In this document: positions 5,184-35,177 of the stretch, in pieces | How the letters are laid out: every line of letters begins with the position of its first letter | Numbering within the stretch: position 1 is the stretch's first letter | Assembly: GCA_965199715.1 (NCBI GenBank) | Contig: OZ241322.1 | Coordinates: 73,226 to 137,225, forward strand | DNA length: 64,000 bases | Source of the DNA: Vicinamibacteria bacterium | GTDB lineage: Bacteria; Acidobacteriota; Vicinamibacteria; Marinacidobacterales; Marinacidobacteraceae | Reading direction: 5' to 3' | Made by a program: the position numbers and the translations under genes | The notes under the pieces: model-generated | Databases searched by the model: none | What the model was told of the DNA's origin: nothing | Seen by the model: the letters and a program-made list of their open reading frames with translations, nothing else

Positions 5184-5985
5184 ACCGGAAGACGTCGCGG
5201 ACGGCTCCGGCGAGGGCGGCGGCGCCCCCGACCGGATGACCTTCCTCGAGCACCTGGACGAGCTCCGCACCCGCCTGATCCGGGCGGTCATGGCCATCGG
5301 CGTGACGTTCGTCGCGTGCTTCTTCTTCTACGAGCGGATCTTCAACTTCCTGATGCAGCCGCTGCGGGAGGTGCTGGACCCGCTCGGCGGCGAGCTCATC
5401 GCGACCGCCCCCACCGAGATCTTCTACCTCGGCATGAAGATGAGCCTGTTGGTCGCGGTGCTCGTCTCGACCCCCGCGTGGCTCGGGCAGGTCTGGGGTT
5501 TCGTGGCCCCCGGCCTCTACAAGCACGAGCGCCGGCTCGCGTGGCCGCTCGTGGGGCTCGGCTCGATGTTCTTCGTGCTCGGCGCGGTCTTCGCGCACGC
5601 CGTCCTCTTCCCCGCGGCCGCGGGCTTCCTCGGCACGTTCGGAGGGGGCGGCGAGGGGATCGAGCTTCGCTACAAGGTCTCCGAGGTGTTCAGCTTCTAC
5701 GCCCGCGTGGTGCTGGGCTCCGCGATCGTCTTCCAGATTCCGACGCTCGCGCTGGCGCTCTCGCGCCTCGGGCTCGTCACGCCCCGGATGCTCTGGAAGT
5801 ACTTCCGCTTCGCGGTGCTCGGCGCCTTCGTCCTCGCCGCGCTCCTGACCCCGCCGGACCCGACCACCCAGATTATCCTCGCCGGCCCGATGATCGTCCT
5901 GTATCTGGTCTCCATCGGGATCGCGTGGGTCGGCAACCGCAGCCGCCGCAAGCGGCGCGAGGAGGCCTCGGGCGACGGCTCGTGA
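5176..5985 (+). CDS. tatC: Twin-arginine translocase subunit TatC
   Basis: 'MTFLEHLDELRTRLIRAVMAIGVTFVACFFFYERIFNFLMQPL...' with six predicted TMs. GTG at 5176 overlaps the tatA stop by 8 nt. An alternative ATG start at 5236 is possible. Confidence 0.85.
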   Translation: MPEPEDVADGSGEGGGAPDRMTFLEHLDELRTRLIRAVMAIGVTFVACFFFYERIFNFLMQPLREVLDPLGGELIATAPTEIFYLGMKMSLLVAVLVSTPAWLGQVWGFVAPGLYKHERRLAWPLVGLGSMFFVLGAVFAHAVLFPAAAGFLGTFGGGGEGIELRYKVSEVFSFYARVVLGSAIVFQIPTLALALSRLGLVTPRMLWKYFRFAVLGAFVLAALLTPPDPTTQIILAGPMIVLYLVSIGIAWVGNRSRRKRREEASGDGS

Positions 5986-6025
5986 TCGCCGCCGGCGCGC
6001 GCCGCGGGGCTGCTAGGATGCGGCC

Positions 6026-7669
6026 ATGCCGAAGGCCCGCCTGATCGGCAGGGCGTCGCTCCTGCCTCTCCTGGTCGCTTCCACCATCGCGGTCGCGGTG
6101 GCCGCGCCGGACCCGTGGAAAGAGCTCCGCCAGTGGCACGTGAACGTGATCCGCACGGTGGAGACCGAGTACGTCCGCGAGATCAGCCCCGAGACGCTCA
6201 CGAGCGCCACGGTGTCGGGCATGCTGGCCCGACTCGATCCGCACTCGAGCCTGATGCCGCCGCAGAACTACCGGCAGATGCGCGAGCGCCAGCAGGGCGG
6301 CTACGTGGGCCTCGGGATCCGGGTGCAGCAGCGCAACGGCCTCCTCACCGTGGTCTCGCCCTTCGAGGGCACGCCGGCGTATCGGCTCGGCATCCGCGCC
6401 GGCGACGTGATCTCGCGGATCGAGGGCGTGGACGCCACCGAGTACGACATGGACGGCGCCGTCTCCCGCCTCAGGGGGCCGCAGGGAACCGCGGTCCGCA
6501 TCACGATCACCCGGCCGGGCTACGACGCGCCGCTCGACTTCACCGTGATCCGGGACCGGATCGCGCTCCGCAGCGTCCCGTACTTCTTCCTGCTCGACGC
6601 GGAGGAGCCCACCGGCTACGTCCGGATCTCCGACTTCAACGAGAACACCGACCAGGAGCTCAAGGACGCCATCGTCGAGCTCCGGCTCCAGGGCGCGGAA
6701 CGGCTCATGGTGGACCTCCGCCGGAATCCGGGCGGCCTTCTGAACCAGGCCGTCTCGGTGTCCAACGTCTTCCTGAAGCAGGGCAAGGAAGTGGTCTCGA
6801 TCCGCGGACGCGACGCGCGCATGGATCAGGAGTACCACGCCCGGGAGCCGAGCCCTCACGCGGATCTCCCGCTGGTCGTCCTCGTCTCGAGGGAGAGCGC
6901 GTCCGCGTCGGAGATCGTGGCCGGAGCCGTGCAAGACCATGACCGGGGCCTCATCGTCGGCGAGAACACCTACGGAAAGGGCCTCGTCCAGTCGGTGTTC
7001 CAGCTTCCCCACGGCTACGCGCTCGGCCTGACCTCGGCGCAGTACTTCACCCCCAGCGGCCGGCGGCTTCAGCGCGACTACGACTCGGGCGACTTCCTCG
7101 CCTACTACCAGGGGCGCGGCGAGCACGACTCCAACGACGAGGCGGGGACCGTCGTCCGGACCGGAATCGGCCGCGAGCTCTCGGGCGGCGGCGGAATCGA
7201 ACCCGACCACGAGGCGCGCACCCCGGACCTTCCGGACGCCGTGCTGGAGCTGGAGCAGCGGGGAGCCTTCTTCCGCTTCGCCACCCGTTTCGTCCCGAAG
7301 GACGGCCGCGGCGCCGTCGATGGGGCGGGGGAGCGCCCCGACGAGCTCACCGCCCGGGGCGCGAACGTCCGCGCCGTCGATCAGGCCTTCCGCGCCGACG
7401 AGCGGGCCTTCGAGGAGTTCTTCGCCTTCCTCGAAGAGGAGAACGTGGCCCACGACCGGGAGGCGCTCGAGGCCCACCGCGAGCCGATGGCCATCCGGAT
7501 CGAGAGCGAGGTCTTTCACCTGCTGTGGGGCCCCGGAGCGGCCCAGCGGGCGGTGATCGACCGCGACCCGCAGGTCCGGGCGGGGCTCGATCTCATGCCG
7601 CGGGCGGCGCTCCTGCTCGAGGACCCGGACGCCTACCTCACGACGATGGGCGGTTCGGGACTCCAGTGA
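6026..7669 (+). CDS. ctpA: Carboxyl-terminal processing protease (S41 family, PDZ domain)
   Basis: Signal peptide, then 'GYVGLGIRVQ...GDVISRIEG' (PDZ) and 'DLRRNPGGLLNQAVSVSNVFL...VVLVSRESASASEIVAGA..GENTYGKGLVQ' (S41 catalytic region). Confidence 0.85.
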   Translation: MPKARLIGRASLLPLLVASTIAVAVAAPDPWKELRQWHVNVIRTVETEYVREISPETLTSATVSGMLARLDPHSSLMPPQNYRQMRERQQGGYVGLGIRVQQRNGLLTVVSPFEGTPAYRLGIRAGDVISRIEGVDATEYDMDGAVSRLRGPQGTAVRITITRPGYDAPLDFTVIRDRIALRSVPYFFLLDAEEPTGYVRISDFNENTDQELKDAIVELRLQGAERLMVDLRRNPGGLLNQAVSVSNVFLKQGKEVVSIRGRDARMDQEYHAREPSPHADLPLVVLVSRESASASEIVAGAVQDHDRGLIVGENTYGKGLVQSVFQLPHGYALGLTSAQYFTPSGRRLQRDYDSGDFLAYYQGRGEHDSNDEAGTVVRTGIGRELSGGGGIEPDHEARTPDLPDAVLELEQRGAFFRFATRFVPKDGRGAVDGAGERPDELTARGANVRAVDQAFRADERAFEEFFAFLEEENVAHDREALEAHREPMAIRIESEVFHLLWGPGAAQRAVIDRDPQVRAGLDLMPRAALLLEDPDAYLTTMGGSGLQ

Positions 7670-8970
7670 CGGCCGTCCTCGCGGCGGTTCTGCTGCTCCC
7701 CGCGCTCGCGAACGCGCAGTCCATCGACGAGCTGCTCGTGCGCATCGAGAGCCCCGACGCCGACATCCGGCGCGAGGCGGCCCGCGACCTCGGCCGCAAC
7801 GGTTCGGACGCGGCCGTCGAGGCTCTGAACGGGGCCGCCGCCGACGAGGACGTCCAGGTGCGGGACGAGGTGCTCGCCGCGCTCGTCGCCGTCCGCCGTC
7901 CGGTCGCGGCCCCCGGCGTCCTTCTCTTCCTCGGCAGCGACGTGAAGGCCGACCGCGAGCGGGCGGTCGCGTCGCTCGTGGACATGCACGGGATCGAGGA
8001 GCCGCCGGGACGGGGCGCCCGCGCGATGAACTGGCTGCTCCGCCGCGACGACGACTTCGTGCTGGATCCGCTGCGCCCGGTGTCCCCGAGCGTCGTCGGC
8101 GGGCTCATGGGCCGGCTCCAGGATCCCGAGCGCGACGTCCGCCTCGCGGCCGCGGAAGGACTCGGCCTGCTGCGGGCGGCCGCCGCCGTTCCCGCGCTCA
8201 CGGCGGCGGCGGGCGACGCCGAGGAACGGGTGGCGCGCGCCGCGATCGCGGCGCTCGGCGAGGTGGGCCACGTCGCCCCCGAAACCGCCGGCCCGGCGCT
8301 CGTGGGCCTGCTGGACGGCTCGCCTCATCCCGTGGACGTGGTCGAGAGCCTCGGGATGATGGCCTTCGAGAGCGCCGGTCGGACGCTGCTCGCGGCCTAT
8401 GACGGCGACGCCGACGGCGAGCTCGGCGAGGCGGCGCTCTGGGCGCTCTCTCGGATCGGATATTCGGGCGCGCTCGCCACGTTCATCGCCGAGCTGACCG
8501 GCAGCGACGCCGGGCGGCGCGAGTCGGCCGCGGCGGGTCTCGGCCGCATCGGCGACCGGGATATGGCCGACGGCATGGTCCGCGACTTCCTGCGGGAGGA
8601 CGACCGTCGCGTCCAGCTCGCCTACTGCTTCGCGCTGACGCTGCTGGGCGAGACTCCCTTCGTGGACCGGGTGGTGCTCGATCTGACCGACCGGACGCTC
8701 GGCGACCAGGCGCGCGACTACGCGCTGGAGCTCGGCGAGCCCGCGGTTCCCCAGTTCGTCCGCTATCTCGGCGATCCCGACAAGGACATGCGCCTGCGGC
8801 TGATCGAGCTTCTGGAGCGCATCGGCTCGGCCGCCGCGATCCCCGGGCTCGAGGGCCGCGAGCAGGATCCCGAAGCGGACGTCGTGGATCGGGCGCGGCT
8901 CGCGATCCGCCGCCTGCGCCAGCTCGAGGAAGCCGGAGTCGAAGCGCGGCGCGGGCCGGGCGGCGGTTGA
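7666..8970 (+). CDS. Secreted HEAT-repeat (PBS-lyase-like) protein
   Basis: GTG at 7666 overlaps the ctpA stop (GTGA). Signal peptide 'VTAVLAAVLLLPALANAQS'. Repeated 'D..VR..AA.ALG..G...A...L' HEAT-like units. The upstream part of the 7525 ORF is G/P/R-rich junk. Confidence 0.65.
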   Translation: MTAVLAAVLLLPALANAQSIDELLVRIESPDADIRREAARDLGRNGSDAAVEALNGAAADEDVQVRDEVLAALVAVRRPVAAPGVLLFLGSDVKADRERAVASLVDMHGIEEPPGRGARAMNWLLRRDDDFVLDPLRPVSPSVVGGLMGRLQDPERDVRLAAAEGLGLLRAAAAVPALTAAAGDAEERVARAAIAALGEVGHVAPETAGPALVGLLDGSPHPVDVVESLGMMAFESAGRTLLAAYDGDADGELGEAALWALSRIGYSGALATFIAELTGSDAGRRESAAAGLGRIGDRDMADGMVRDFLREDDRRVQLAYCFALTLLGETPFVDRVVLDLTDRTLGDQARDYALELGEPAVPQFVRYLGDPDKDMRLRLIELLERIGSAAAIPGLEGREQDPEADVVDRARLAIRRLRQLEEAGVEARRGPGGG

Positions 8971-10406
8971 AGCCTCCCGGAAACGATGAGACGATCGGCG
9001 GCGTGAACCTGGCACTCGTGAGTCACTCCACTCGGCGCCGCGTCCCGGCGGCGCTTCTCGCCGCGGTCTTCGTCCTCGGCGCGCTTCCGGCGGACGCGGA
9101 CGCGCCGTCCCGGCGCACCGTCTGGCGCGACATGACGAACAAGGGGAACTCCCTCGTGATCGGGCGGTTCGCGGGCAAGTTCGAGAGTTCCGACTTCCGT
9201 TCCCGGCGCATCGTGATGCGGCACCGGGACACCGGCAAGCGGGAGACGCTCCGGATCGACGACGGTCTCGGCCTGATCGCCGAGATCGTGAAGCCGGGCG
9301 TGTACGACGTGCTCGCGATCGAGGCGGTGTACCTGCCGCAGATCCGCCCCATGAACCCGCGCCGGATCCGCCCCATCCGCCAGCGGTTCTCGGTCTCGCC
9401 CAGGGAGCACGAGATCAGGGAGGCGCTGATCCTCGTCCCCGCCGACCGCCCGGTCTACATCGGCACGATCCGCGCCGGCGCCGAGCGGCGGGGGATGGTG
9501 TACGAGGGCCAGAAGCTGCGCGTGGTCGATGACTTCGACGTGGCCATGGACCGGCTCGCCACGGTGTATCCGCAGCTCGCGACCAGCCTCGAGCAGGAGG
9601 CGCTGGTTCCGCAGCGGCACTTCATGCTGCGTCCGACCCGCACCGACCCGCCGCTCGAGGCCGTCGTCGGCATGGAGGACCCGGTGACGCAGGCGCGGCG
9701 CTACATCGAGGACGGAAAGTACGAGCAGGCCATCGACTGGCTCTCCACGTTCATGCCGGTCTCCGACAACCAGCGCAGCGAGGTGCGGCTCCTGATCGGC
9801 GAGGCGCATCTGGGATCGCGCGACCTGCCGCTCGCCATCGAGGAGCTCGGCGAAGTGCTCCTGAGCGAGCCCGGCAATGTCCGCGCCTTGCGGCTGCTCG
9901 CCCGCGCCCACTCGCTGAACGGCGATCTGGAGGACACCGAGAACCTCTACCACGCGCTTCTCGAGATGCGGCCCCGCGACGCCGAGGCGCACCTCCAGAT
10001 CGGCTACCTGCAGGCGCTTCGCTCCGAGGAGGAGAGTTCGCTCGCCTCGTTCGAAGTCGCCTTCGAGAGCGAGTTCGACTACCTGATGCACGACCTCGCG
10101 CCGTTCCTGATCGCGGTGCGCGGCACCACCGAGCAGGGCGCGCTCTACGAGCCGGCCACGATGCTCGACACCGACGTCCCGTTCGCGGGCGGCTCCGGCT
10201 CCCGGCGCTCGTCGCGCAACGACGGCATCCTCGTGCTGATCGACCACCGGGGGCGCGTCAAGGCGGCGCACTTCGCGCCGGACAGCTCGAACCGCGCCCA
10301 CCTCACGATGTTGTCTTTGGTGCGCGGGCGCTACCGCCCGGCGCGCCTCAACGGGGTCTCGGTGCCGTCGATCCTCGCGAGCGGCCGCTTCCGCGGCGAG
10401 AACTAG
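8967..10406 (+). CDS. Secreted TPR-repeat protein (hypothetical)
   Basis: Protein-like composition. Signal-peptide-like 'RRRVPAALLAAVFVLGALPADA'. TPR-like segments 'YEQAIDWLS...', 'ALRLLARAHSLNGDLEDTENLYHALLEMRP'. Start is uncertain: TTG 8967 (TTGA overlap with the upstream stop), GTG 9003 or GTG 9018. Confidence 0.55.
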   Translation: MKPPGNDETIGGVNLALVSHSTRRRVPAALLAAVFVLGALPADADAPSRRTVWRDMTNKGNSLVIGRFAGKFESSDFRSRRIVMRHRDTGKRETLRIDDGLGLIAEIVKPGVYDVLAIEAVYLPQIRPMNPRRIRPIRQRFSVSPREHEIREALILVPADRPVYIGTIRAGAERRGMVYEGQKLRVVDDFDVAMDRLATVYPQLATSLEQEALVPQRHFMLRPTRTDPPLEAVVGMEDPVTQARRYIEDGKYEQAIDWLSTFMPVSDNQRSEVRLLIGEAHLGSRDLPLAIEELGEVLLSEPGNVRALRLLARAHSLNGDLEDTENLYHALLEMRPRDAEAHLQIGYLQALRSEEESSLASFEVAFESEFDYLMHDLAPFLIAVRGTTEQGALYEPATMLDTDVPFAGGSGSRRSSRNDGILVLIDHRGRVKAAHFAPDSSNRAHLTMLSLVRGRYRPARLNGVSVPSILASGRFRGEN

Positions 10407-11161
10407 GGCGCTTCCAGCAGCCGCTCCACCTCGGCCTCGAGCGCCGAGAACGGTTGGTCGGTGCTCGGCGCCGGGTGCAGTAGCCCTTGGCGGTCGATGA
10501 GGAAGTTGGCCGGGTAGCGGGCGGTCTCCATGAACACCGGCGGCACGGCGCCGCCCTCGAGCGCGCCGGGCACGAGCAGCGGGTACTCGACCGCCACCGA
10601 CTCGTCCCGGAACGTCCGCTGGATCGCCTCCTCCTCGGTCGAGATCCCGAACACCACGAGGCCCCGGTCCGCCTCCTCGGCGGCGAGCCGGTCCAGCTCG
10701 GGCATCTCGGCGCGACACGGCGGACACCACGTGGCCCAGATGTTGACAAGCACGACGGACCCCCGGTAGCCGGAAAGCCGGTGGACGCCGCCGTCCAGAT
10801 CGCGGGCGAGGAAGTCGGGCGCGGGCACGCCCGAGAGCGCGAGGTTGGCCGCCTGCCGCGCCCGGCGGACGCCGCCCCGGATGGGGACGAAGGCGAGCCC
10901 GAGCGTCAGCGTCGCGACGAGCGCGCCCGCGATCCCCGCGGCGCCGAGCGCGCCGGCGCGCCGCGCCCGGAACGCCGAAACCAGCGCGAGGACCGGCGGC
11001 GCCAGCATCGCGAGGGTGACCGCGGCGAGCCGGAACACCCAGTCGCCGTCGGGGTTCGCGCTCAGGCGCGTGAGCCCGACGTACGCGCCGAGGCCGAGGA
11101 CGGCGGAGAGCAGCGGGGCGGAAAGGCCGGCCCACAAGGGCGAGCGGGGCACAAGGCTCAT
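10403..11161 (-). CDS. Membrane-anchored TlpA/ResA-like thiol:disulfide oxidoreductase (thioredoxin fold, WCPPC)
   Basis: Three or four N-terminal TM helices, then 'VVLVNIWATWCPPCRAEMPELD' as the redoxin active site. ATG 11161 overlaps the upstream stop (ATGA). Confidence 0.8.
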   Translation of the reverse strand: MSLVPRSPLWAGLSAPLLSAVLGLGAYVGLTRLSANPDGDWVFRLAAVTLAMLAPPVLALVSAFRARRAGALGAAGIAGALVATLTLGLAFVPIRGGVRRARQAANLALSGVPAPDFLARDLDGGVHRLSGYRGSVVLVNIWATWCPPCRAEMPELDRLAAEEADRGLVVFGISTEEEAIQRTFRDESVAVEYPLLVPGALEGGAVPPVFMETARYPANFLIDRQGLLHPAPSTDQPFSALEAEVERLLEAP

Positions 11162-12141
11162 GGGACGTCTCCCTCGTAGCGGCGGCGGATGACGGGAATC
11201 AGGTACTCGGCGAACAGCGACTCGGCGTCGGGGTCGGGAACCCAGCGGAAGTCGTCCCGCGCCGCGCGGTCGTCCACCTCGGCCGGCCAGCTCTGGACGA
11301 TCCGGTCGCGTTGCACGTCGGGAGCGTAGGTATGGTCGAGGTCCGGGAAGTCCCGCCGCACGCGGGCGGCGACTTCCTCCGCCGAAAGGCTGGGGCCGCC
11401 GAGGTTGTATGCGGTGCGCGAGAGGCGGGACTTGTCCGCGTCGGCCAGCCGGAGCACGCCCTCGACCGCCGTCGGCATGGCGCAAAACGGAAGTCGCGCC
11501 TCGGGACCGACGAAGCACGCGAACGACTCGCCCCGCGCCGCGGCGTGGATCATCTCGGGCGCCCAGTCGCTCGTCCCTCCCGACGGCAGCGTCTCGGCGG
11601 ACAGGAGCCCGGGGAACCGCACCGCGCGGAAGTCCAGATTCGCGCACTCCCGCTCGAGGACCGTCCCGAGGCGCTCGACGTAGAGCTTTTGCGCTCCGTA
11701 GAGCGTCGCCGGGTTCAGGAACTGGTCCTCGCGCACCGGCCCGGGGTCGCGCCGCAGCGGCACTCCGTACACGGCGATCGAGCTCGGGAAGAGGAACGCC
11801 ACCGGGGTCTCGGCGGCGAGCGCCGCCGCTGCCCCGAGCGCCCGGACCGAACCCTCGACGTTGACCCGGTGCGCGAGTTCGGGGACCGACTCGGCGCGGG
11901 TCGAGAGCAGCGCGGCGAGGTGGAAGATCCGCTGCGGCCGATGTCCGAGGATGCGCTTCCAGACCTCCCGGTCGAGGATGTCGCCCTGGATGTGCCCGAG
12001 GCTTCTCGGGGCCGCTTCGCCGGGGAGCGGGCGGATGTCGGTCGTGAGCACCCGGCAGTCGGAACGCGCCGAAAGCCGGCGCACGAGCGCGGTTCCGATC
12101 TCCCCGGACGCGCCGGTGACCAGCGTGACCGGCGGGCTCAC
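11158..12141 (-). CDS. NAD-dependent epimerase/dehydratase family protein (short-chain dehydrogenase, L-threonine-3-dehydrogenase-like)
   Basis: 'VTLVTGASGEIGTALV' Rossmann motif, '...YGAQK' catalytic YxxxK. GTG at 12141 verified; it overlaps the upstream gene stop (GTGA). The R-rich 5' extension of the track ORF was rejected. Confidence 0.75.
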   Translation of the reverse strand: MSPPVTLVTGASGEIGTALVRRLSARSDCRVLTTDIRPLPGEAAPRSLGHIQGDILDREVWKRILGHRPQRIFHLAALLSTRAESVPELAHRVNVEGSVRALGAAAALAAETPVAFLFPSSIAVYGVPLRRDPGPVREDQFLNPATLYGAQKLYVERLGTVLERECANLDFRAVRFPGLLSAETLPSGGTSDWAPEMIHAAARGESFACFVGPEARLPFCAMPTAVEGVLRLADADKSRLSRTAYNLGGPSLSAEEVAARVRRDFPDLDHTYAPDVQRDRIVQSWPAEVDDRAARDDFRWVPDPDAESLFAEYLIPVIRRRYEGDVP

Positions 12142-12827
12142 GCCGGGCCCCCGAGAACGGCGGCGAGGAACCGCCCCACGTCGCGGCACTCGGGCGCCGA
12201 GACCTCGTGGGCGATCGGGTACGCGCGGAAGACTCCGTCCCACCCGGCGTCGCGAAACGCCCGGAACGCGGCCTCGCCGTAGCGGCACGGAATGAGTTCA
12301 TCCGACAGGCCGTGGCCGGCGAAAAGCCGCGCTCCCGGGAGCTTCGGACCGCGCACCAGCTCGGTGTGGGCGACGTGAGTCGAAAGCGCCAGCACGCCGC
12401 CGACCTCGACGGGATCCCCCGCCACGCCGTCGAGCCCGGCGGCGGCGAGCGCCACCGCGCCGCCCTGCGAGAACCCGGCGAGGACGATCCGGCGCGCCGG
12501 AACGCCCGCCTCGCGCTCCTCCCGGACGAGTTCCCGGATCCAGGTCACCGACTCGGCGAGCTGCTCCTCGTCCACGAGCCGCCCGCGGGCCTCCGGAGAC
12601 TCCGCGATGATCGCGCGCAGATCGAACCACGAGCGCATCGGGAAGCCGCCGTTCAACGTCACCGGGCGGACCGGCGCCTCCGGGAAGCGGAAGCGGACTC
12701 CGAGCGCGGGCGGGAGGCCGAGCATGGGGATCACCGGGACGAAGTCGTCGCCGTCGGCCCCGAGGCCGTGGAGCCAGATCACGGTGGCGCGGTGCTCTCC
12801 AGACGGCGGGAGTTCGACGATGCTCAC
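12138..12827 (-). CDS. Phospholipase/carboxylesterase family alpha/beta hydrolase
   Basis: 'TVIWLHGLGADGDDF', 'MRSWFD', 'GFSQGGAVAL' (nucleophile elbow), matching the Abhydrolase_2 pattern. GTG at 12827 overlaps the upstream stop (GTGA). Only the last 229 aa of the 899-aa track ORF are protein-like. Confidence 0.75.
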   Translation of the reverse strand: MSIVELPPSGEHRATVIWLHGLGADGDDFVPVIPMLGLPPALGVRFRFPEAPVRPVTLNGGFPMRSWFDLRAIIAESPEARGRLVDEEQLAESVTWIRELVREEREAGVPARRIVLAGFSQGGAVALAAAGLDGVAGDPVEVGGVLALSTHVAHTELVRGPKLPGARLFAGHGLSDELIPCRYGEAAFRAFRDAGWDGVFRAYPIAHEVSAPECRDVGRFLAAVLGGPA

Positions 12828-15742
12828 GTGAATTGCTCCCGCAGCGCGAAGTCGAGCGTCTCCAGGTACCGGTCGGCGTCGGCGTTCGAGAAGGTGAGCG
12901 GGGGCTTGAGCTTGATCACGTTGCGGTCGGGGCCGTCGGTGCTGTTGAGGATGCGGCAGTCGTGGAGGCGCCGCACGAGCCGCCCGGCCTCCCGGGTCGC
13001 CGGCGCCGGCGGATCGCCCGGGTGCGCGAGCTCGAAGCCGAGGAAGAGGCCCCGGCCGCGGACGTCGGCAAGGATAGGGCAGGAGCGGCCGATCTCGGCG
13101 ATCCCGGAAAGAAGCCGCGCCCCCACGGCCGCCGCGCGCTCGGCGAGCCCCTCGTCGCGGATGACGTCGAGGACGGCGAGGCCGGCGGCGCACGAGACCG
13201 GATTCCCGCCGAAGGTGTTGAAGTACTCCATCCCGTCCTCGAAGGAACGGGCGACCTCCGGGGTCGTCACGACGGCTCCGAGCGGGTGCCCGTTTCCGGC
13301 CGGCTTGCCCACGGTCACGATGTCGGGAACCGCCGCGTCGTCGCCGGTCCGGTCGGAAAAGGCCCAGAACGCCGGGCCGACGCGCCCGAAGCCGGTCTGC
13401 ACCTCGTCGGCGACGATGACGCCGCCGGCCTCGCGCACCGCCCGGTAGAGCGCGTCCAGATATCCCGGCGGCGGGACGATCTGCCCTCCGCAGCTCAGGA
13501 TGGCCTCGTGAACGAGGGTGGCCGGCCCGGCGGCGGCGACGCGGCGGGCCGCGTCCTCCATGAGCCGCTGCGTCCAGTCGGGCCGATTTCGGCGGAAGCG
13601 CCCGCGGAACCCGTCGGGAGCCGGCAGCCGATGGAGGCGGGGGTGCGGCCGGCCGCCGCCCGGACCGTCCAGCTTGTACGGGCTGATCTGGATGAGCGAG
13701 GTCAGGTTCCCGTGGTAGCCGCCGTCGAAGACGATCGCGTCGTCGCGGCCGAGCCGAGCGCGGGCCAGCCGCAGCGCGAGGTCGTTGGCCTCGCTGCCGG
13801 AGTTCGTGAAGAACACGACCGACAGCGGCTCGGGAAGCGTTTCGGCGAGCGCCTCCGCGTATTCGGTCAACTGCCGGTAGAGATACCGGGTGTTCGTGTT
13901 CAGGAGCCGCGCCTGCCTCGCGATGGCCTCGGCGACTCTCGGATGCGCGTGCCCGACGTGGCAGACGTTGTTCACCATGTCGAGGTAGTCGCGCCCAAGG
14001 TTGTCGTACAGCCGGGTGCGCCGCCCGCGCGCCACCGAGACCGGCGGGTCGCCGCTGAGGCTGAGCGCCGCGCTGATCCGTCGCCTCCGCGCCTTCAGCA
14101 GGTGCTCGGGCTCGGCGAGGGCCTCGTGCGAGACCGCGACCCGGTCCGGGTCGAGGCCGAGGAACGCCGCCGGGTTCGGGCTCATCGCCTCGAGGACCGG
14201 AAGGTCGCGGGGCGCGGCCACGCCCGGCGGGTCGTCGCCGAAGCCGAGATCGGCGGTCAGCAACTGGAAATGGAGGTGCGGCGGCCAGCCGCCGTTCTCG
14301 TCTTCGGTCCCGAGCCTCGCGATTCGATCGCCGCGCCGGACCGGGTCGCCGGGCTTCCAGCGGGCGAGGCATTCGCGGGCGAGATGGCCGTACAGCGCGC
14401 CGAAGCCGCCCGGATGCCGGATCGCGAGGCAGGGACCGAACCCGAGCGGGACGGCGTCCTCGCGAATCCAGTCGATCGCGCCGTCCAGCGGGGCGCGGAC
14501 CTCGGTTCCGGCCGGCGCGAAGACGTCGATCCCGAGGTGAATCGTGCGCGGCTCGGCGACCGGCGATCCGCCCCGGAAGCCGGGCGCGGCGTAGAGCAGG
14601 CGCGGCTCGCGATAGCGGCCGATGGAGACTCCGGGCGGGATGGCGTCGGCGAGCTCCTCGGGGCCGGCCAAGGCTTCGGGGCCGAGATCCAGCGCCGGCG
14701 CGTCGTCCGGAATCTCGATCGGCCGAACGGCCGCCCCTCCGGGATCCGCCGATCGAACCCGGAACCCGGCCGCGACCCGCGCCCGAGCCGCGAGCAGCGC
14801 GCCCGGAGTGCGGTCCAGTTCCGACAGGAACCGCCACATCCCGTCCTCGCTGGTCACGAGATACGCCTCGCCGGCGTTGGCTCGCCCGGCGCTGACCGCG
14901 GCGCTCACGAGCGCCCGCGCCGCGAGCGCGGTCGGGAAGAGTTCGGCTTCGGCCGCGAGCGCAGGGGCGAACGCCCGGAGGACGGCGAGCGCCGCCTCGA
15001 GCGGCTCGGCGGCGGTGAGCGAGAGATAGAGCGCGGCGTTCGCGGCCTCAAGCAGCGGCGGACCCCGCGACGCGTCCCCGAAGTCCAGCACGGCGAGCGC
15101 GCCCGGGTTCTCGGGTTCGCCCTCGAGCAGCAGGTTGTCGTCGTTCAGATCGTTGTGGAGCCAGTTCTCCGGAAGGCCGAGGAGTTCCGTCAGTCTCGGC
15201 AGCGTCCGCTCCCGGATCCGGTCGTAGAGCTCCGGATCGCGCAGTCCGCGTCCGGCCGCCCGGATGACGCCCTCGTACCGATCCGGCCGCCAGGGAATGT
15301 CCGCCGGCGGGAGCTCGTCGCCCGCGACCGAGGCCAGCGCCGACTGGAGCCGGGCCGCGGTTTCGCCGGCCCGGGCGAGGAGCGCCGGCGGGCGGCGCCG
15401 GAACGACGAGAGCGCCCGGCCGGGGAGGCGCGGGAAAAGCCGCAGCCAGTGGCGCCGTCCGTCGAAGACGCGCGACGCCCGTGCGCGCCCGTCGGGAAGC
15501 GGGATCGGAACCGCGACCCGGACCTGCGCCGCCGCCGCCCGGATCAGGCGCTCCTCGAGGTCGAGCTGCGCGGCGGAAGCGCCGCTCTCGCTGATCTTGA
15601 GGACGCGGGCGCCCACCGCGAAGTTGAGATCGCGCTCGCCGGGCAGGGGAAGCGCCTGCGCGGAGACGCCCCACAGCGCGGCGGCGAGCTCTTCGGCCTC
15701 CGCCGGGGTGACGCGGGGCCGGCGCGGCAGCGGATCGTTCAC
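12824..15742 (-). CDS. Three-domain fusion protein: APH/hydroxylysine-kinase-like phosphotransferase + M23 metallopeptidase domain + class-III (AGXT2L-like) PLP-dependent aminotransferase/phospho-lyase
   Basis: N-terminal 'ERDLNFAVGARVLKIS...LHNDLNDDNLLL...VLDFGDA' (kinase HxDxxxxN and DFG motifs). Middle 'HLGIDVFAPAGTEV...GGWPPHLHFQL' (M23 HxxxD and HxH zinc motifs). C-terminal 'GGYHGNL...ADEVQTGFGRVG...VTVGKPAGNGHPLGAV' (class-III aminotransferase with PLP lysine). GTG at 15742 overlaps the ALDH stop (GTGA). The first ~400 codons of the 1368-aa track ORF are R/P-rich artefact. Confidence 0.75.
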   Translation of the reverse strand: MNDPLPRRPRVTPAEAEELAAALWGVSAQALPLPGERDLNFAVGARVLKISESGASAAQLDLEERLIRAAAAQVRVAVPIPLPDGRARASRVFDGRRHWLRLFPRLPGRALSSFRRRPPALLARAGETAARLQSALASVAGDELPPADIPWRPDRYEGVIRAAGRGLRDPELYDRIRERTLPRLTELLGLPENWLHNDLNDDNLLLEGEPENPGALAVLDFGDASRGPPLLEAANAALYLSLTAAEPLEAALAVLRAFAPALAAEAELFPTALAARALVSAAVSAGRANAGEAYLVTSEDGMWRFLSELDRTPGALLAARARVAAGFRVRSADPGGAAVRPIEIPDDAPALDLGPEALAGPEELADAIPPGVSIGRYREPRLLYAAPGFRGGSPVAEPRTIHLGIDVFAPAGTEVRAPLDGAIDWIREDAVPLGFGPCLAIRHPGGFGALYGHLARECLARWKPGDPVRRGDRIARLGTEDENGGWPPHLHFQLLTADLGFGDDPPGVAAPRDLPVLEAMSPNPAAFLGLDPDRVAVSHEALAEPEHLLKARRRRISAALSLSGDPPVSVARGRRTRLYDNLGRDYLDMVNNVCHVGHAHPRVAEAIARQARLLNTNTRYLYRQLTEYAEALAETLPEPLSVVFFTNSGSEANDLALRLARARLGRDDAIVFDGGYHGNLTSLIQISPYKLDGPGGGRPHPRLHRLPAPDGFRGRFRRNRPDWTQRLMEDAARRVAAAGPATLVHEAILSCGGQIVPPPGYLDALYRAVREAGGVIVADEVQTGFGRVGPAFWAFSDRTGDDAAVPDIVTVGKPAGNGHPLGAVVTTPEVARSFEDGMEYFNTFGGNPVSCAAGLAVLDVIRDEGLAERAAAVGARLLSGIAEIGRSCPILADVRGRGLFLGFELAHPGDPPAPATREAGRLVRRLHDCRILNSTDGPDRNVIKLKPPLTFSNADADRYLETLDFALREQFT

Positions 15743-17097
15743 CGCAGCAGCATCCGGATCAGCCCCAGCTTGCCGGCGTAGGGCGGATAGCGGATCGGGA
15801 GGTCCAGCCGCGAGCCGGAGAGCACTGCGCGGGGCCGGGACAGGCGGTCGAAGCCGTAGCGGCCGTGGTAGGCGCCGACCCCGCTGCGGCCGGTCCCGCC
15901 GAAGGGCAGCCAGGGGCTCGCGCAGTGGAGCACTGTGTCCTGCGTCACGAGCGCGCCGCCGGGAATCCGCCGCACCGCCACCCCGAGCGAACTCCGCCGC
16001 GACCCGAAGAAGTAGAGCGCGAGCGGCTCCGGATTCGCCGCCACTCGGTCGAGCGCCTCGTCCTCGCTCCTCCACGGGACGAGCGGCAGGATCGGGCCGA
16101 AGATCTCCTCGGTCGCGGCGGCGTGTCCCTCGGGCCACGGCCCGGTGACGGTCGGCGCGAGATAGCGCCGCGCCGGGTCCGCCTCGCCGCCGCGAAGTAC
16201 CGGAAGCCCGTCGAGCAGGCCGAGCAGCCGATCGAGGTGGCTCTCGTTCACGATGCGGGCGTAGTCCGGGCTCTTCGCCGGGTTCTCGCCGTAAAAGCGC
16301 GTCAGCTCGCGGCCCACGAGCGCGGCGAATTCGTCGAGGCGGCGCTCGGGGACGAGCGCGTAGTCGGGCGCCACGCAGGTCTGGCCGGCGTTCAGGAACT
16401 TCCCCCACGCGATCCGGCGGGCGGCGAGCGGCAGATCGGCGGAGTCGTCCACCATCGCCGGGCACTTGCCGCCGAGTTCGAGGGTGACCGGCGCGAGCGT
16501 GTGCGCCGCCGCCTCGGCGACGGCCATTCCGGTGCGCCGGTTTCCGGTGAAGAACACGTGGTCGAACCCGGCCCGCACCAGCGCCGCGCCGGTCTCGGGG
16601 CCGCCCCGCACGACGCTCGCGAGCCCCTCGGGCAGCGCGTCGGGGAGGATGCGGGCGAGGAGGTCGGCGGTCGCCGGCGCGAGTTCCGACGGCTTCAGGA
16701 CGACGGCGTTCCCCGCCGCGATCGCGGCGACGACGGGCGCGAGCGAGAGCTGGACCGGGTAGTTCCACGGCGCGATCACGAGCACCGCCCCGAGCGGGAC
16801 CGGCTCGACCCGGCTGCGCGCCGGAAGCAGCGCGAGCGGCGTGGGCCGGCTCCGCGGACGCATCCACTCTCCGAGATGGCTTCGCGCGTGGCGGATTTCG
16901 GCGCGCACGAGGCCGATCTCGGTGGCCCACGCCTCGAACGGGCCCTTGCCGAGGTCCCTCTCGAGCGCTTTCTCCAGCGCGCCCCGATGCTCCCGCAGCA
17001 TCCGGTCGAGCGAACCGAGCGCGTCCCGCCGGAACCGCCGGGAGAGGGTGGCTCCGCTCCTCGCGAATCGCCTCGCCCGCTCCCGAATCTCGTCCAA
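15739..17097 (-). CDS. Aldehyde dehydrogenase (ALDH3/fatty-aldehyde-dehydrogenase-like)
   Basis: 'VLVIAPWNYPVQL', 'ELGGKCPAMV', 'FLNAGQTCVAPDY', 'EEIFGPILPL'. The N-terminus aligns with ALDH3 proteins from 'MDEIRERARRFARSG', so I chose TTG at 17097, which lies about 10 nt downstream of a TATACT -10 box. The longer track ORF would overlap msrA. Confidence 0.75.
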   Translation of the reverse strand: MDEIRERARRFARSGATLSRRFRRDALGSLDRMLREHRGALEKALERDLGKGPFEAWATEIGLVRAEIRHARSHLGEWMRPRSRPTPLALLPARSRVEPVPLGAVLVIAPWNYPVQLSLAPVVAAIAAGNAVVLKPSELAPATADLLARILPDALPEGLASVVRGGPETGAALVRAGFDHVFFTGNRRTGMAVAEAAAHTLAPVTLELGGKCPAMVDDSADLPLAARRIAWGKFLNAGQTCVAPDYALVPERRLDEFAALVGRELTRFYGENPAKSPDYARIVNESHLDRLLGLLDGLPVLRGGEADPARRYLAPTVTGPWPEGHAAATEEIFGPILPLVPWRSEDEALDRVAANPEPLALYFFGSRRSSLGVAVRRIPGGALVTQDTVLHCASPWLPFGGTGRSGVGAYHGRYGFDRLSRPRAVLSGSRLDLPIRYPPYAGKLGLIRMLLR

Positions 17098-17131
17098 GGG
17101 AGGGCGAGTATAGAGTCTAGAATCGGCGGCG

Positions 17132-17779
17132 ATGGCCGCCCGTTCCCAAGCTCTCCCGTACCCCTCCGCAACGCTGCCGGACCGCCCGGTCGCCATCCCG
17201 CCGCCCGCCGCGCACCGCGTCCTCGGGAATCCGATGGCTCCGCCGTGGCCGGCGGGAATCGATGAGAGCTTCTTCGGCATGGGCTGCTTCTGGGGCGCCG
17301 AGCGGCTGTTCTGGAAGCTCCCGGGCGTCTGGAGCACCGCGGTCGGATACGCCGGCGGAACCACCGCGAACCCGTCGTACGAGGACGTCTGCTCGGGGAG
17401 GACCGGCCACGCCGAGGTGGTGCGGGTCGCGTTCGACCCGGCGCGGATCGACTACGACGGGCTGCTGTGCGCGTTTTGGAACAACCACGACCCCACCCAG
17501 GGAATGCGCCAGGGCGGCGACGTCGGCACGCAGTACCGCTCGGCGCTCTATACGGTGGGCGACCGGCAGCGGGACGCCGCGCTCGCCTCGCGCGACGCCT
17601 TCGAGGCGCGCCTCCGGGACGCCGGGCTCGGCGCGATCACGACCGAGATCCGGCCCTCGCCGGCGTTCCATTTCGCCGAGGAGTACCACCAGCAGTACCT
17701 CGACAAGAACCCGTGGGGGTACTGCGGCCTCGCCGGTACCGGCGTCTCCTGCCCGACGGGCGTCCGCGCCGCGAGCTGA
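17132..17779 (+). CDS. msrA: Peptide-methionine (S)-S-oxide reductase MsrA
   Basis: '[29 protein letters not shown]...GHAEVVRV...[19 protein letters not shown]...EEYHQQYL'. The N-terminus aligns with E. coli MsrA. TAGAAT -10 box 8 nt upstream. Confidence 0.9.
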
Positions 17780-29556: not shown

Positions 29557-30507
29557 ATGCGGGGCATGAGGCTCGGCGCCGCCGCGATCCTGCTGGCGCT
29601 TCCGGCCGCGGCTCAGGAGATCCCGCGCTTCGAGGCGGGGGTCGATCTCGTCTCGGTGCCGGTCGCGGTCACGGATCGCGACGGGGACTTCGTCACCGGA
29701 CTGACGGCGGCGGATTTCCGCGTCTTCGAGGATGGAGTCGAGCAGGAGATCCTGATCTTCGGCGCCGGGCTCGACGAGTCGTGGGTCGAGCTGCCCCCGG
29801 AAGCGAAGGAGGACACGCCCGGCCGCAACGTCATCGGCCTGCTCCTCGACTCGTCGGGCAGCATGGAGAAGGACATGAGCCTGCTCCACGAGGCGGCGAT
29901 CAAGTTCCTGACCAACATTCCGCCCGCAGAGCATCTCTTCGTCATCAGCTTCGACGAGAACATCCGGCTTTCCGAGTATTCGTCGGACGACCAGCGGACC
30001 ATCGCGAACCGCATCTACGACATCGAGGCCGACGGTTGGACCGCGCTCTACGACTCGGTGGCGACGTTCCTCGACCGCGTCTGGGACTACGAGGGACGCA
30101 AGACGCTCGCGGTGTTCAGCGACGGAGCCGACTCGCGCTCGGCGCTCAGCTTCGGCGAGGCCATGGACCTCGTCAAGCTCGGCGACACCACCATCCACAC
30201 GATCCAGTTCGGCGACCGGGCGCGCGCCCGGGACCTCTTTCACAACTCGCGCTTCCTGCGGGCCATCGCCGAGGAGACCGGCGGCTCGCACGCGGTGGCG
30301 TCCTCGCTCGACCAGATCGACGAGCTCTACGACCGCATCCTCGACGAGCTCCACAGCCAGTACGCCATCGGCTACGTGTCCAGCAACCTGAAGCGCGAGG
30401 GCCGCTACCGGGACATCGAGGTGCGCGTCGTCGCCGACGGGCTGGACGACCCGAAGGTGCGGGCGCGCCGGGGGTACTACGGCCCGATGGACCCGCCGAG
30501 CCCCTGA
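29557..30507 (+). CDS. Secreted von Willebrand factor A (VWA) domain protein
   Basis: Signal peptide; 'IGLLLDSSGSMEKDM' MIDAS DxSxS motif; '...TALYDSVATFL...LAVFSDGADS'. Confidence 0.8.
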   Translation: MRGMRLGAAAILLALPAAAQEIPRFEAGVDLVSVPVAVTDRDGDFVTGLTAADFRVFEDGVEQEILIFGAGLDESWVELPPEAKEDTPGRNVIGLLLDSSGSMEKDMSLLHEAAIKFLTNIPPAEHLFVISFDENIRLSEYSSDDQRTIANRIYDIEADGWTALYDSVATFLDRVWDYEGRKTLAVFSDGADSRSALSFGEAMDLVKLGDTTIHTIQFGDRARARDLFHNSRFLRAIAEETGGSHAVASSLDQIDELYDRILDELHSQYAIGYVSSNLKREGRYRDIEVRVVADGLDDPKVRARRGYYGPMDPPSP

Positions 30508-31107
30508 CCGGGCGCCGCGAGCCGGCGAAGCAACTCCCGCACTTCGCCCAGGCGTTCGTGGTCGAGGTTCCAGAGCGCCTTCTTCGCCGCCACCCCGACG
30601 GACGCCTGGGGAGCGGAGGTCGTCGCGAGGAAGGCTCGCGACCGCGCCTTCGCCGTGGGCGCGACGAGCCGTCCACTCGGGCGACGCAGTCGAAGAACTC
30701 GTCGATGCACGGCGTGATGGGACGTTTTCCTCAAGGCTCTGCAATCGAGGCTCGAGCGCCTTCAGCGAGTGAAGAAGCAAACCCTCGCGCTTCCGCCTGC
30801 GCAGCACGGAGAGCCGATTCGCGTCTTCCGTAGCATTTCGATTGGCCGCCGACAGGAACGCGCCCCGAAACTGCGTTGCCTCGGGACAGTCCATCGACAG
30901 TTTGCCGTCCTTCCCGAATCGCCGGGTCGGCTCCCGTCTGGAATTCTGCTCATGGGACAGCGAAAGGGTTGGCAACCGGACGGTCTCGGCTTGCGTCGCG
31001 ATCGCGGCGGGTGCGCGGTTGCACCCATTGCCATTGGCTTCTGATTGGTCCCCACGGACCGGGACAGCGAGTGATCCGTCCTCGCGGTCAACGCGAATGG
31101 TCAGCGC

Positions 31108-33036: not shown

Positions 33037-33133
33037 GCGACGGACAACTCCCTTCGCCGCCGCGGTCGTGATTTCCTGCGTGGAGCGCAGCGAAAAGGGG
33101 GACGGGACATCGCTTCGATCTCGGCGGAAGCGA

Positions 33134-33171: not shown

Positions 33172-33190
33172 TGGGGAGTCGGGAATCAGG

Positions 33191-35062: not shown

Positions 35063-35177
35063 GTCAGGTTCCTCCGATATGCACAACTCGTGGGGCAAGT
35101 AACGTGCCCAAGTTACAAGGGCAGCGCAACCATAACAGAAGCGAAACCGGATGAAAAGCGCAACCGGCGCGGCGGCG

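Follow-up and report, generated by a model that had tools for sequence, protein, structure and literature searches.

The stretch of DNA analysed here (the window, 64 kb in length) carries five genes on its minus strand, running from 17097 to 10403, which form a real, tightly packed operon of an uncultured Vicinamibacteria-type acidobacterium. The features are as follows.

17107..17112, minus strand: TATACT, a −10-like hexamer read from the sequence, 9 nt upstream of the TTG at 17097
15739..17097, minus strand: gene 1, predicted class-3 aldehyde dehydrogenase (ALDH), 452 aa, TTG start (Pfam Aldedh, E=3e-77)
12824..15742, minus strand: gene 2, three-domain fusion, 972 aa (Pfam APH + Peptidase_M23 + Aminotran_3)
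14735..15742, minus strand: gene 2 residues 1-336, APH-fold small-molecule kinase (Pfam APH, E=4e-22)
14114..14734, minus strand: gene 2 residues 337-543, M23 metallopeptidase-like insert (Pfam Peptidase_M23, E=2e-15)
12824..14113, minus strand: gene 2 residues 544-972, class-III-fold PLP domain, most likely of the phospho-lyase (ETNPPL/PHYKPL) subfamily (Pfam Aminotran_3, E=7e-67)
12138..12827, minus strand: gene 3, carboxylesterase / acyl-thioesterase-like serine hydrolase, 229 aa (Pfam Abhydrolase_2, E=3e-31)
11158..12141, minus strand: gene 4, predicted NAD-dependent extended SDR, L-threonine 3-dehydrogenase (GalE-like) family, 327 aa (Pfam Epimerase)
10403..11161, minus strand: gene 5, membrane-anchored TlpA/ResA-like thiol:disulfide oxidoreductase, 252 aa (Pfam AhpC-TSA + Redoxin)
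15739-42 (GTGA), 12824-27 (GTGA), 12138-41 (GTGA) and 11158-61 (ATGA), minus strand: gene junctions, in order from gene 1 to gene 5

All five open reading frames had been called at these positions in a first-pass annotation; its coordinates, junction tetranucleotides and coding frames were all verified, and its domain names match Pfam (Aldedh; APH + Peptidase_M23 + Aminotran_3; Abhydrolase_2; Epimerase; AhpC-TSA/Redoxin). Each junction is an exact 4-nt overlap of start and stop codons. Third-codon-position GC (0.84-0.96) tracks the five frames through every gene body, dropping only in 300-nt windows that cross gene junctions or the operon start. The block is flanked by a divergent msrA (17132-17779, plus strand) and a convergent TPR gene (8967-10406, plus strand), and the operon therefore comprises exactly five genes. 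Shine-Dalgarno-like sequences (GGGAG, GGGGG and GAGGGAG) precede genes 3-5, with none ahead of gene 1, and a scan for terminators gave 3 hits, which is within the 2.0 ± 1.6 expected by chance. We infer that the five genes are a single transcription unit, in which the 4-nt overlaps would couple translation of the downstream genes. There is no transporter or regulator gene among the five, and computed hydropathy shows no signal or membrane segment in any of the four enzymes (ALDH, fusion, esterase and SDR).

The −10 box noted previously, about 10 nt upstream of the ALDH, is indeed present. It is the sole TATACT on either strand of the window, though at least one copy appeared in 32 of 100 shuffled sequences, so that the lone match is by itself not beyond chance. 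It is raised above chance by its conservation: in all six orthologous loci compared (the window, L001, L002, L003, L005 and L087) it lies 9-10 nt upstream of the aligned TTG, GTG or ATG start, while the remaining intergenic DNA is unconserved. A two-hexamer sigma-70 scan found no match, and there is no Shine-Dalgarno sequence between the hexamer and the ALDH start codon. With the conserved element lying right against the first start codon, the mRNA probably has no leader, and the arrangement suggests a leaderless or near-leaderless promoter. A leaderless message starting on TTG would however be unusual. The N-terminus of the ALDH aligns with the starts of its orthologues.

Gene 1 is assigned by homology to class 3, the fatty/aromatic aldehyde type. 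Its catalytic motifs are intact (the Glu of ELGGK and the Cys of GQTCVAPD), and among solved structures the enzyme is closest to 6k0z (3e-112), human fatty aldehyde dehydrogenase 4qgk (7e-108) and rat class-3 ALDH 1ad3. Class-3 ALDHs usually favour medium- and long-chain and aromatic aldehydes. The substrates originally proposed for this enzyme, 2-aminoadipate semialdehyde or acetaldehyde, are therefore not favoured, since class 3 is not the family usually used for them.

In the fusion encoded by gene 2, the N-terminal domain has the kinase motifs K49, H196-x-D198-x4-N203 and D220-F-G-D223, and the catalytic motifs are invariant across 26 family members. In a profile search with this domain, the best solved relative was 6ef6 (1e-13), which we take to be the aminopropanol kinase of M. 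smegmatis, followed by homoserine kinase 2ppq (1e-10). The C-terminal domain contains the PLP-binding lysine K813 and D779, both invariant in the family. It matches human O-phosphoethanolamine phospho-lyase (6tor; 3e-119, 403 bits, 46% identity, TM 0.93) and the Arthrobacter phospholyase (5g4i; 1e-78, 269 bits, 37-38% identity, TM 0.92), the only two phospho-lyases that have been both characterised and solved structurally. A wide score gap separates these from all transaminases, the next best of all other solved matches being 5e-50 and none exceeding 174 bits. The PLP domain is thus most likely a phospho-lyase rather than a transaminase. It had been suggested that the kinase and an AGXT2L-type phospho-lyase yield an aldehyde for the co-transcribed ALDH, and this remains a sound reading, given the proximity of the PLP domain to both phospho-lyases and the presence of an orthologous class-3 ALDH beside or near the fusion in several independent contexts. 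The full-length NCBIfam models PRK06148 and PRK06149 cover the three-domain architecture; no experimentally characterised member of the family was found in the literature searchable here.

Between these domains lies the M23 insert. This genome retains its residues H402xxxD406, H453 and H489xH491, and the domain can be aligned to active M23 enzymes; most family members, in different phyla, likewise keep the zinc and catalytic residues. Five relatives (53-56% identity) have nevertheless lost the zinc ligands, and one orthologue (P0023/L090) lacks the entire M23 segment. Where the context was examined (L002, L003 and L090), the operon is kept despite the loss of ligands or domain. The M23 domain thus appears dispensable in this clade, where the pathway is predicted not to require it. 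The possibility raised earlier that it acts on peptidoglycan is unlikely, the fusion having no signal peptide or membrane segment and the domain being degenerate or deleted in orthologous operons.

The esterase has the nucleophile motif GFSQG, and its solved relatives include P. fluorescens carboxylesterase 1auo (6e-38), APT1/APT2 and SOBER1. The SDR matches solved L-threonine 3-dehydrogenases (TDHs) over its full length (1e-54 to 1e-34, the next family being at 2e-10). It is placed by this comparison in a divergent subfamily of the TDH family, with 34-35% identity to characterised TDHs and changes in TDH-invariant motifs. SDRs about half-identical to gene 4 are also found with no fusion nearby. 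Given these relatives and the motif changes, threonine is not established as the substrate. Gene 5 is predicted from hydropathy to have three N-terminal hydrophobic segments, after which comes a redoxin domain with the WCPPC motif; its scores against NCBIfam TlpA and ResA fall below the cut-offs of those models. The TlpA-like gene occurs only in the window's own clade, being missing from L085 and having an AbgT transporter in its place in L028, and is best described as a lineage-specific passenger. Genes 3-5 had all been set aside as unexplained extras, which still applies to the apparently unrelated TlpA-like gene but not to the esterase and the dehydrogenase (now recognised as a TDH-family SDR), which are the most consistently co-located partners.

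Conservation of the gene neighbourhood, named in the first-pass annotation as a check on the operon, was indeed found. The order ALDH-fusion-esterase-SDR-TlpA is kept in the window and in L001, L002, L003, L005, L087 and L090. In the window's clade, however, the whole neighbourhood is syntenic (metH, msrA, TPR, HEAT, S41 and TatC), so that conservation of the operon inside the clade is weak evidence alone. In two more distant loci the fusions are only 41-45% identical and the other neighbours all differ. In L028, with the fusion at 41%, AbgT and a peptide ABC transporter come after ALDH-fusion-esterase-SDR, while L085 has fusion-esterase-SDR with an orthologous ALDH 3 kb upstream. The fusion-esterase-dehydrogenase block thus recurs in three genomic contexts, and on this comparative evidence the esterase and dehydrogenase are taken to be conserved partners of the fusion. 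In a Coxiellaceae MAG, too, an ALDH of 45% identity adjoins the fusion. The three-domain fusion occurs in at least 598 species genomes, Asgard archaea included, and usually stands alone: about 74 of 80 other genomes have none of these operon neighbours, and no neighbouring Pfam family recurs around the fusion among those 80. The general function of the fusion therefore does not depend on the operon partners.

On the basis of the gene structure, domain identities, intact catalytic motifs, synteny and conservation of the promoter element, we hypothesise the following chemistry, order of steps and substrate. On balance we consider it probable that the operon is one transcription unit for amino-alcohol catabolism by kinase, phospho-lyase and ALDH, with the esterase and SDR as partners. 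The core would be the 972-aa protein, acting in the cytoplasm through two of its domains. Its APH-fold kinase would add phosphate to the hydroxyl group of a vicinal (1,2-) amino alcohol, and its PLP domain would release first the phosphate and next ammonia, leaving an aldehyde. This aldehyde would be oxidised to the acid by the class-3 ALDH, whose gene lies immediately upstream of that for the fusion. The esterase and SDR, which we regard as true pathway partners from their co-location, most likely act before the kinase, the former by de-esterifying a precursor and the latter by turning an amino-hydroxy compound into an amino-keto compound or the reverse. In our leading model, threonine or a related 2-amino-3-hydroxy compound would be converted to an aminoketone or amino alcohol, then to the O-phosphate, the aldehyde and the acid, by analogy with the aminoacetone/1-aminopropan-2-ol pathway. 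Against this, the route from threonine to aminoacetone needs a reduction step that has no dedicated gene, unless the SDR does it, and the preference of class-3 enzymes suits propionaldehyde or acetaldehyde only loosely.

Several other functions were considered. The 46% identity of the PLP domain to the human phosphoethanolamine enzyme, and the relationship of the esterase to acyl-protein thioesterase / lysophospholipase enzymes, would fit salvage of ethanolamine/phosphoethanolamine from phospholipid turnover, in which the esterase would help to free the head group and the kinase, lyase and ALDH would yield phosphoethanolamine, acetaldehyde and acetate in turn. However, similarity to ETNPPL cannot separate it from PHYKPL or other specificities, the TDH-family SDR is left with no role, the ALDH is not of the acetaldehyde dehydrogenase type, and the operon contains no ethanolamine permease or glycerophosphodiesterase gene; we consider this salvage route unlikely. 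Slightly less likely again is the breakdown of a conjugated amino alcohol (an aminolipid, N-acyl amino alcohol or small peptide), where the esterase would strip an O-acyl group, M23 would cut an amide or peptide bond, the freed amino alcohol would be phosphorylated and eliminated, and the class-3 ALDH would take a hydrophobic aldehyde. The widely intact M23 residues, the acyl or hydrophobic substrates of the esterase and ALDH families, and the AbgT-family and peptide-type ABC transporters after the L028 block all point this way, but the transporter link comes from one genome, and orthologous operons keep every other gene after M23 ligand or domain loss. Catabolism of 5-hydroxylysine, as proposed in the first-pass annotation, would use hydroxylysine kinase and 5-phosphohydroxylysine phospho-lyase to make 2-aminoadipate semialdehyde for oxidation by the ALDH. 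The kinase and PLP domains are homologues of animal HYKK and PHYKPL, as reportedly described by Veiga-da-Cunha in 2012. Hydroxylysine is moreover present in some bacterial aminolipids (PMC4484230). Nevertheless, the ALDH is not of the aminoadipate-semialdehyde (ALDH7) type, lysine-catabolic genes are absent nearby and the SDR again has no role, making this proposal improbable.

Two further explanations question the pathway itself. The co-transcribed genes could serve unrelated processes, their conservation being merely inherited synteny, as the clade-wide synteny, the unrelated look of the TlpA-like gene and the many solitary fusion genes would allow. We give this slightly less credence than hydroxylysine catabolism, since fusion-esterase-SDR recurs with an adjacent or nearby orthologous ALDH amid different neighbours in L028 and L085. 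Finally, the PLP domain could be a true aminotransferase, converting for example an aminoketone to a 2-oxoaldehyde for the ALDH, with the kinase having a separate regulatory or resistance role. Class-III enzymes are mostly transaminases (PMC8154272), and Axen et al. first considered a route from aminoacetone through methylglyoxal to an ALDH for the RMM locus. This is very improbable, because the domain is much nearer the phospho-lyases than any transaminase, and its permanent fusion to a kinase throughout the fusion-bearing genomes argues for a phosphorylated substrate.

The preferred reading, amino-alcohol catabolism through an O-phosphate, is of a pathway type already known, although this gene set is uncharacterised. 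The description of the module as apparently undescribed does not hold, as bacterial kinase/phospho-lyase fusions, the PRK06148/PRK06149 models and the analogous RMM enzyme set are already on record. Such fusions ("bi- or tri-functional") are said to have been the clue that led Veiga-da-Cunha in 2012 to the human enzymes. The two models, titled "aminotransferase" with no functional name, share the end-to-end architecture, with 14-971 of the 972 positions of PRK06149 covered. The window fusion scores 857 and 538 bits, below the curated cut-offs of 1128 and 973, and is therefore a divergent relative. The animal enzymes HYKK/AGPHD1 and PHYKPL/ETNPPL (AGXT2L2/AGXT2L1) likewise pair an APH-fold kinase with a PLP enzyme of class-III fold, which releases phosphate and ammonia and leaves an aldehyde; here a single chain carries the two activities along with the M23 insert, and its gene shares an operon with those for a class-3 ALDH, an esterase and a TDH-family SDR. 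The Arthrobacter aurescens phospholyase A1RDF1 (5g4i) is a bacterial member of the same subfamily, but consists of one domain only and lacks the kinase and M23 parts.

Gene 4 has full-length homology to the SDR-type TDHs (mouse 4yr9; T. volcanium, C. necator and T. brucei) and shares with them the NAD-binding Gly motif and Asp, HLAALLS, PSSIA, Y-x3-K and SWP..DD. It differs in GQIG (here GEIG), YGxS/TK (YGAQK), PGGGTTDYA (PSGGTSDWA) and LPMMYMPD (LPFCAMPT), and has an additional C-terminal YLIPxIRRRY tail; the kbl partner gene is absent from the operon.

The nearest bacterial parallel in gene content is the aminoacetone/(S)-1-amino-2-propanol RMM locus of Mycobacterium and Rhodococcus. RMM1 loci are described (Mallette & Kimber being among the references) as containing a class-III "aminotransferase", a phosphotransferase, an SDR that converts between aminopropanol and aminoacetone, hydrolases and an ALDH. 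The shared elements are therefore an amino alcohol/aminoketone SDR, an APH-family kinase, a class-III-fold enzyme, an ALDH and hydrolases, together with 6ef6 as the closest solved relative of the kinase domain. In contrast to the RMM locus, the genes examined here include none for a microcompartment shell, kinase and lyase form one protein, the SDR belongs to the extended GalE/TDH rather than the classical type, the ALDH is class 3 rather than CoA-acylating, and the PLP domain is nearer to ETNPPL than to the Arthrobacter enzyme.

The five minus-strand genes running from 17097 to 10403 are best read as an operon for deaminating a vicinal amino alcohol in a phosphorylation-dependent way. The kinase domain of the fusion protein would act first, on the amino alcohol; the PLP domain would then eliminate phosphate and ammonia to give an aldehyde, which the aldehyde dehydrogenase (ALDH) would finally oxidise. 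The five genes lie in a region of 72–75% GC and were called from an ORF listing combined with third-position GC profiling. They are listed here with the two genes that border them.

15739-17097, minus strand: gene 1, ALDH
12824-15742, minus strand: gene 2, three-domain fusion
12138-12827, minus strand: gene 3, esterase
11158-12141, minus strand: gene 4, SDR
10403-11161, minus strand: gene 5, TlpA-like redoxin
17132-17779, plus strand: msrA, divergent, the right border of the operon, with metH beyond
8967-10406, plus strand: TPR gene, convergent, the left border of the operon

As proposed in the first-pass annotation, the five genes are joined by 4-nt overlaps. The junctions are GTGA, GTGA, GTGA and ATGA, all where that annotation had placed them, and its domain calls for the operon genes are confirmed by Pfam. 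Shine-Dalgarno-like purine runs (GGGAG, GGGGG and GAGGGAG) occur before genes 3 to 5, within the 3' end of the preceding gene, and no such run is found before gene 1. None of the four enzymes (ALDH, fusion, esterase and SDR) has an export signal. At the left border, the stop codons of the TPR gene (8967-10406, plus strand) and the TlpA-like gene (10403-11161, minus strand) overlap by 4 nt, at 10403-10406, so that a terminator would not fit between these convergent units. Terminator-like hits in a scan were at chance level and were located inside the SDR gene.

Two features outside the operon are worth recording. Genes for TPR, HEAT-repeat, S41 (PDZ) peptidase and TatC proteins lie downstream in four related loci (L001, L002, L003 and L087), with TatA as well in L001 and L087, and may form a second functional cluster; in the window, the TPR and HEAT genes of this set were confirmed at about 5900-10406. 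Positions 30001-34000 have a GC content of 0.66-0.67, against about 0.73 elsewhere, and their large ORFs gave no hit in Pfam except for one fibronectin type III domain (33191-35098, minus strand). This stretch may be acquired DNA.

The TATACT -10 box previously noted upstream of the ALDH gene is present at 17107-17112 on the minus strand, 9 nt 5' of the TTG start at 17097. The hexamer occurs once in the window, counting both strands, and one match is within chance. The same hexamer is also found 9-10 nt 5' of the aligned TTG, GTG or ATG start in five related loci (L001, L002, L003, L005 and L087), in which the intergenic DNA around it is unconserved. The bases between TATACT and the start of gene 1 are C-rich and leave no space for a ribosome-binding site. 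We infer that TATACT is probably a conserved -10 element of a leaderless or nearly leaderless message. A standard two-hexamer sigma-70 scan found no promoter, and Rfam gave no match over the whole window, so that no riboswitch or leader RNA accounts for regulation. An alternative ALDH start, the ATG at 17196, was rejected because it would create a 65-nt overlap with msrA and because the starts of the orthologues line up with the TTG.

The gap between msrA and the ALDH gene is 34 bp (17098-17131), and in it a TAGAAT (17118-17123, plus strand) stands back-to-back with the TATACT (17107-17112, minus strand). Each is 8-9 nt 5' of its own start codon, and Shine-Dalgarno sequences are absent on both sides, which suggests divergent leaderless promoters. 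Locus L001 has a matching ATTCTA next to its TATACT. A strictly conserved -10 hexamer so close to the start codon is a rare sequence-level hint on promoter and leaderless-mRNA use in Vicinamibacteria-type Acidobacteriota.

The fusion would carry out the first two steps of the proposed chemistry. Its PLP domain has the class-III aminotransferase fold (Pfam PF00202, E=7e-67), and both the PLP-binding lysine (G812-K813-P814) and the aspartate that contacts the pyridine nitrogen (D779) are invariant in 26 homologues. [quoted passage not shown] All other solved class-III enzymes, comprising transaminases, racemases and decarboxylases, score at most 174 bits. In both sequence and structure the PLP domain is thus nearest to the characterised phospho-lyases. 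The kinase domain has the H196-N-D198...N203 loop, D220-F-G-D223 and the β-3 lysine K49, and D198, N203, D220 and K49 are invariant across the family. As a single sequence it matched no solved structure. A profile of the domain found 6ef6 first (1e-13), which we take to be the M. smegmatis aminopropanol kinase, followed by homoserine kinase (1e-10). AlphaFold gives a confident model of the full-length fusion (pLDDT 86.6, pTM 0.85). When this model was compared with the PDB using Foldseek, the PLP domain alone was matched, and no solved three-domain structure was found.

Proteins with these three domains are not rare: when one genome per species was scanned with a pattern, at least 598 loci matched, and the architecture is present in more than 10 phyla, Asgard archaea included. 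Among the matches listed, it occurs in Acidobacteriota, Gemmatimonadota, Bacteroidota, Chloroflexota, Planctomycetota, Proteobacteria (Rhodobacterales/Ruegeria, Ensifer), Streptomyces and Asgard archaea, and the closest named genome among them is a Candidatus Marinacidobacterium MAG of the class Vicinamibacteria, at 52% identity. The full-length NCBIfam models PRK06148 and PRK06149 both match the window fusion, under their cut-offs. Full-length fusions of 36-37% identity were seen in Thorarchaeota and Promethearchaeota MAGs (L020, L035 and L078) and in an unclassified uncultured archaeon (L021), pointing to inter-domain transfer of a bacterial-type enzyme, or to contamination. Veiga-da-Cunha, in 2012, reportedly called such bacterial fusions 'bi- or tri-functional', and they are said to have given the clue to what three human enzymes do. 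The literature searched yielded no experimental work on any three-domain member; the fusion is widespread, yet no member with a known substrate was found there.

Whether the operon is a functional unit was judged from 90 loci. Throughout the window's own clade (L001, L002, L003, L005, L087 and L090) all five genes occur together, but this proves little alone, because the rest of the neighbourhood is conserved too. More telling are two lineages outside the clade. Locus L028, with a 41% identical fusion, has the order ALDH-fusion-esterase-SDR in surroundings otherwise unrelated to those of the window, while in L085 (45% identical) fusion-esterase-SDR stands in yet a different setting and an orthologous ALDH gene is found 3 kb upstream. 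In a Coxiellaceae MAG, the fusion adjoins an ALDH of 45% identity. The fusion, esterase, SDR and ALDH genes thus recur as a set, without the TlpA-like gene. The core linkage holds in L028 and L085, and the esterase and SDR, earlier set aside with gene 5 as unexplained extras, belong with the fusion; that description still fits the TlpA-like gene. In L028 (12427-17386), which is an acidobacterial MAG, the position of this gene is taken by same-strand genes following the block, for an AbgT-family transporter, a family-5 (peptide-type) solute-binding protein and an ABC permease, and these are the only transporter genes that hint at the substrate.

The operon partners are missing altogether from about 74 of the 80 other fusion loci. 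Outside the acidobacterial block no neighbour of the fusion recurs, either on clustering the ORFs that lie up to 6 kb from it at 84 loci or on Pfam analysis of 128 immediate neighbours. The fusion is therefore normally self-contained, with the operon as a lineage-specific elaboration. In most genomes, where the fusion stands alone, context is uninformative. The acidobacterial clade is unusual in having it embedded in a conserved operon with ALDH, esterase and TDH-family (L-threonine 3-dehydrogenase) SDR genes, which narrows the chemistry and offers a small, testable enzyme set.

In the window the zinc ligands and catalytic residues of the M23 insert are complete, with H402xxxD406, H453 and H489xH491 aligning with active M23 enzymes, and both distant phyla and the relatives at 70% identity keep the ligands. 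Five relatives at 53-56% identity (P0005, P0009, P0013, P0018 and P0021) have H402 and D406 replaced, and four of the five H491 as well, and the operon is retained in both contexts checked (P0005 in L002, P0013 in L003). In L090 the fusion (P0023, 8001-10415) has 804 residues and the whole M23 segment, residues about 337-543, is cleanly absent; its operon shares the metH-msrA flank and all four partner genes with the window. On these alignments the insert is decaying within the window's clade, and its loss from an otherwise intact operon implies that the pathway of this clade is independent of M23 catalysis. The fusion has no hydrophobic segment at its N-terminus, and the insert sits between two cytoplasmic enzyme domains, features that do not fit an exported enzyme acting on cell-wall peptides. 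The suggestion that the M23 domain acts on peptidoglycan fragments is rejected on the grounds of this predicted cytoplasmic location and of the dispensability of the domain. Orthologues that naturally lack the insert, or carry a degenerate one, offer ready-made controls for its function.

The partner enzymes have been further analysed. The ALDH has the ELGGK (general-base Glu) and GQTCVAPD (catalytic Cys) motifs. Its top solved matches are all of the ALDH3/FALDH type (1e-112 to 1e-102), the best being 6k0z, the human fatty aldehyde dehydrogenase and rat ALDH3 (1e-112 to 1e-103), and its best NCBIfam match is the benzaldehyde dehydrogenase MdlD model, under its cut-off. It is a class-3 aldehyde dehydrogenase. 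Comparison with solved structures groups the esterase with P. fluorescens carboxylesterase and the acyl-protein thioesterases. Gene 5 encodes three hydrophobic segments followed by a redoxin domain with WCPPC, and matches the TlpA and ResA models, both under cut-off; with a predicted membrane anchor and a thioredoxin-fold CxxC domain it has the make-up of a TlpA/ResA/DsbE protein, and there are no cytochrome-maturation genes near it.

The SDR matches 18 solved SDR-type TDH sequences over their full length (1e-54 to 1e-34; next family 2e-10) and keeps the cofactor and catalytic residues GxxGxxG, D35, S120, Y148 and K152. Alignment with three characterised TDHs shows that all four TDH-invariant motifs, GQ(I/L)G, YGxS/TK, GGG(T/A)TDYA and LPM(M/L)Y..D, are altered (GQIG to GEIG, YGxS/TK to YGAQK, PGGGTTDYA to PSGGTSDWA, LPMMYMPD to LPFCAMPT), and that the window SDR has an additional C-terminal tail. 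Identification as a true L-threonine dehydrogenase was consequently rejected, and the protein is annotated here as a TDH-family relative. Acidobacterial relatives show the same differences, whether or not a fusion is adjacent, and no kbl-like gene (2-amino-3-ketobutyrate CoA ligase) is present in the operon or its immediate flanks. In L088 and L089 (5586-8023), SDR relatives of about half identity lie directly 3' not of a fusion but of a PALP+CBS-domain gene, which is cystathionine-beta-synthase / threonine-dehydratase-like, so this SDR subfamily has at least one other metabolic partner. A 1023-aa gene near the SDR in L089 is not a homologue of the fusion.

These assignments bear on the substrate. 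The leading candidate, on the strength of the conserved TDH-family SDR, is a threonine-like or aminoketone precursor. Ethanolamine is also in play, given the similarity of the PLP domain to ETNPPL. The presence of a class-3 ALDH and an acyl-esterase hints that the substrate is more hydrophobic or is acylated. Hydroxylysine, the main idea of the first-pass annotation, seems the least favoured of the candidates named. We also considered, as an improbable extension, that the fusion is a 'deconjugate, phosphorylate, eliminate' machine whose operon partners complete a hitherto undescribed catabolic route. The cytoplasmic M23 domain would then be a true amidase, releasing the amino alcohol from a natural product or aminolipid to which an amide or peptide bond ties it, and the esterase, TDH-like SDR and class-3 ALDH would complete a route for an acylated 2-amino-hydroxy compound. 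If true, an orphan enzyme family present in at least 598 species genomes would gain a function. If the substrate of the proposed deamination is an ordinary one, such as ethanolamine or aminopropanol, the operon would be a routine addition to a known pathway type.

The same chemistry is found in the animal HYKK/PHYKPL/ETNPPL enzymes (Veiga-da-Cunha 2012, as cited in PMC8154272) and in the aminoacetone/1-aminopropan-2-ol pathway of the RMM microcompartment (PMC4207490; Mallette & Kimber, as cited in PMC8007038). The RMM locus contains an SDR, a phosphotransferase, a class-III enzyme, hydrolases and an ALDH. The operon is predicted to work in a similar way but is not a member of this system, since the genes between 7.5 and 21.6 kb of the window include no microcompartment shell-protein domains. 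The earlier description of the module as apparently undescribed is too broad, since the type of pathway, the architecture of the fusion and all the enzyme families are known; it stands for the conserved gene set. What appears to be new, in comparison with these systems, is this gene set, the dispensability of the M23 insert within it, and the conserved leaderless-type promoter.
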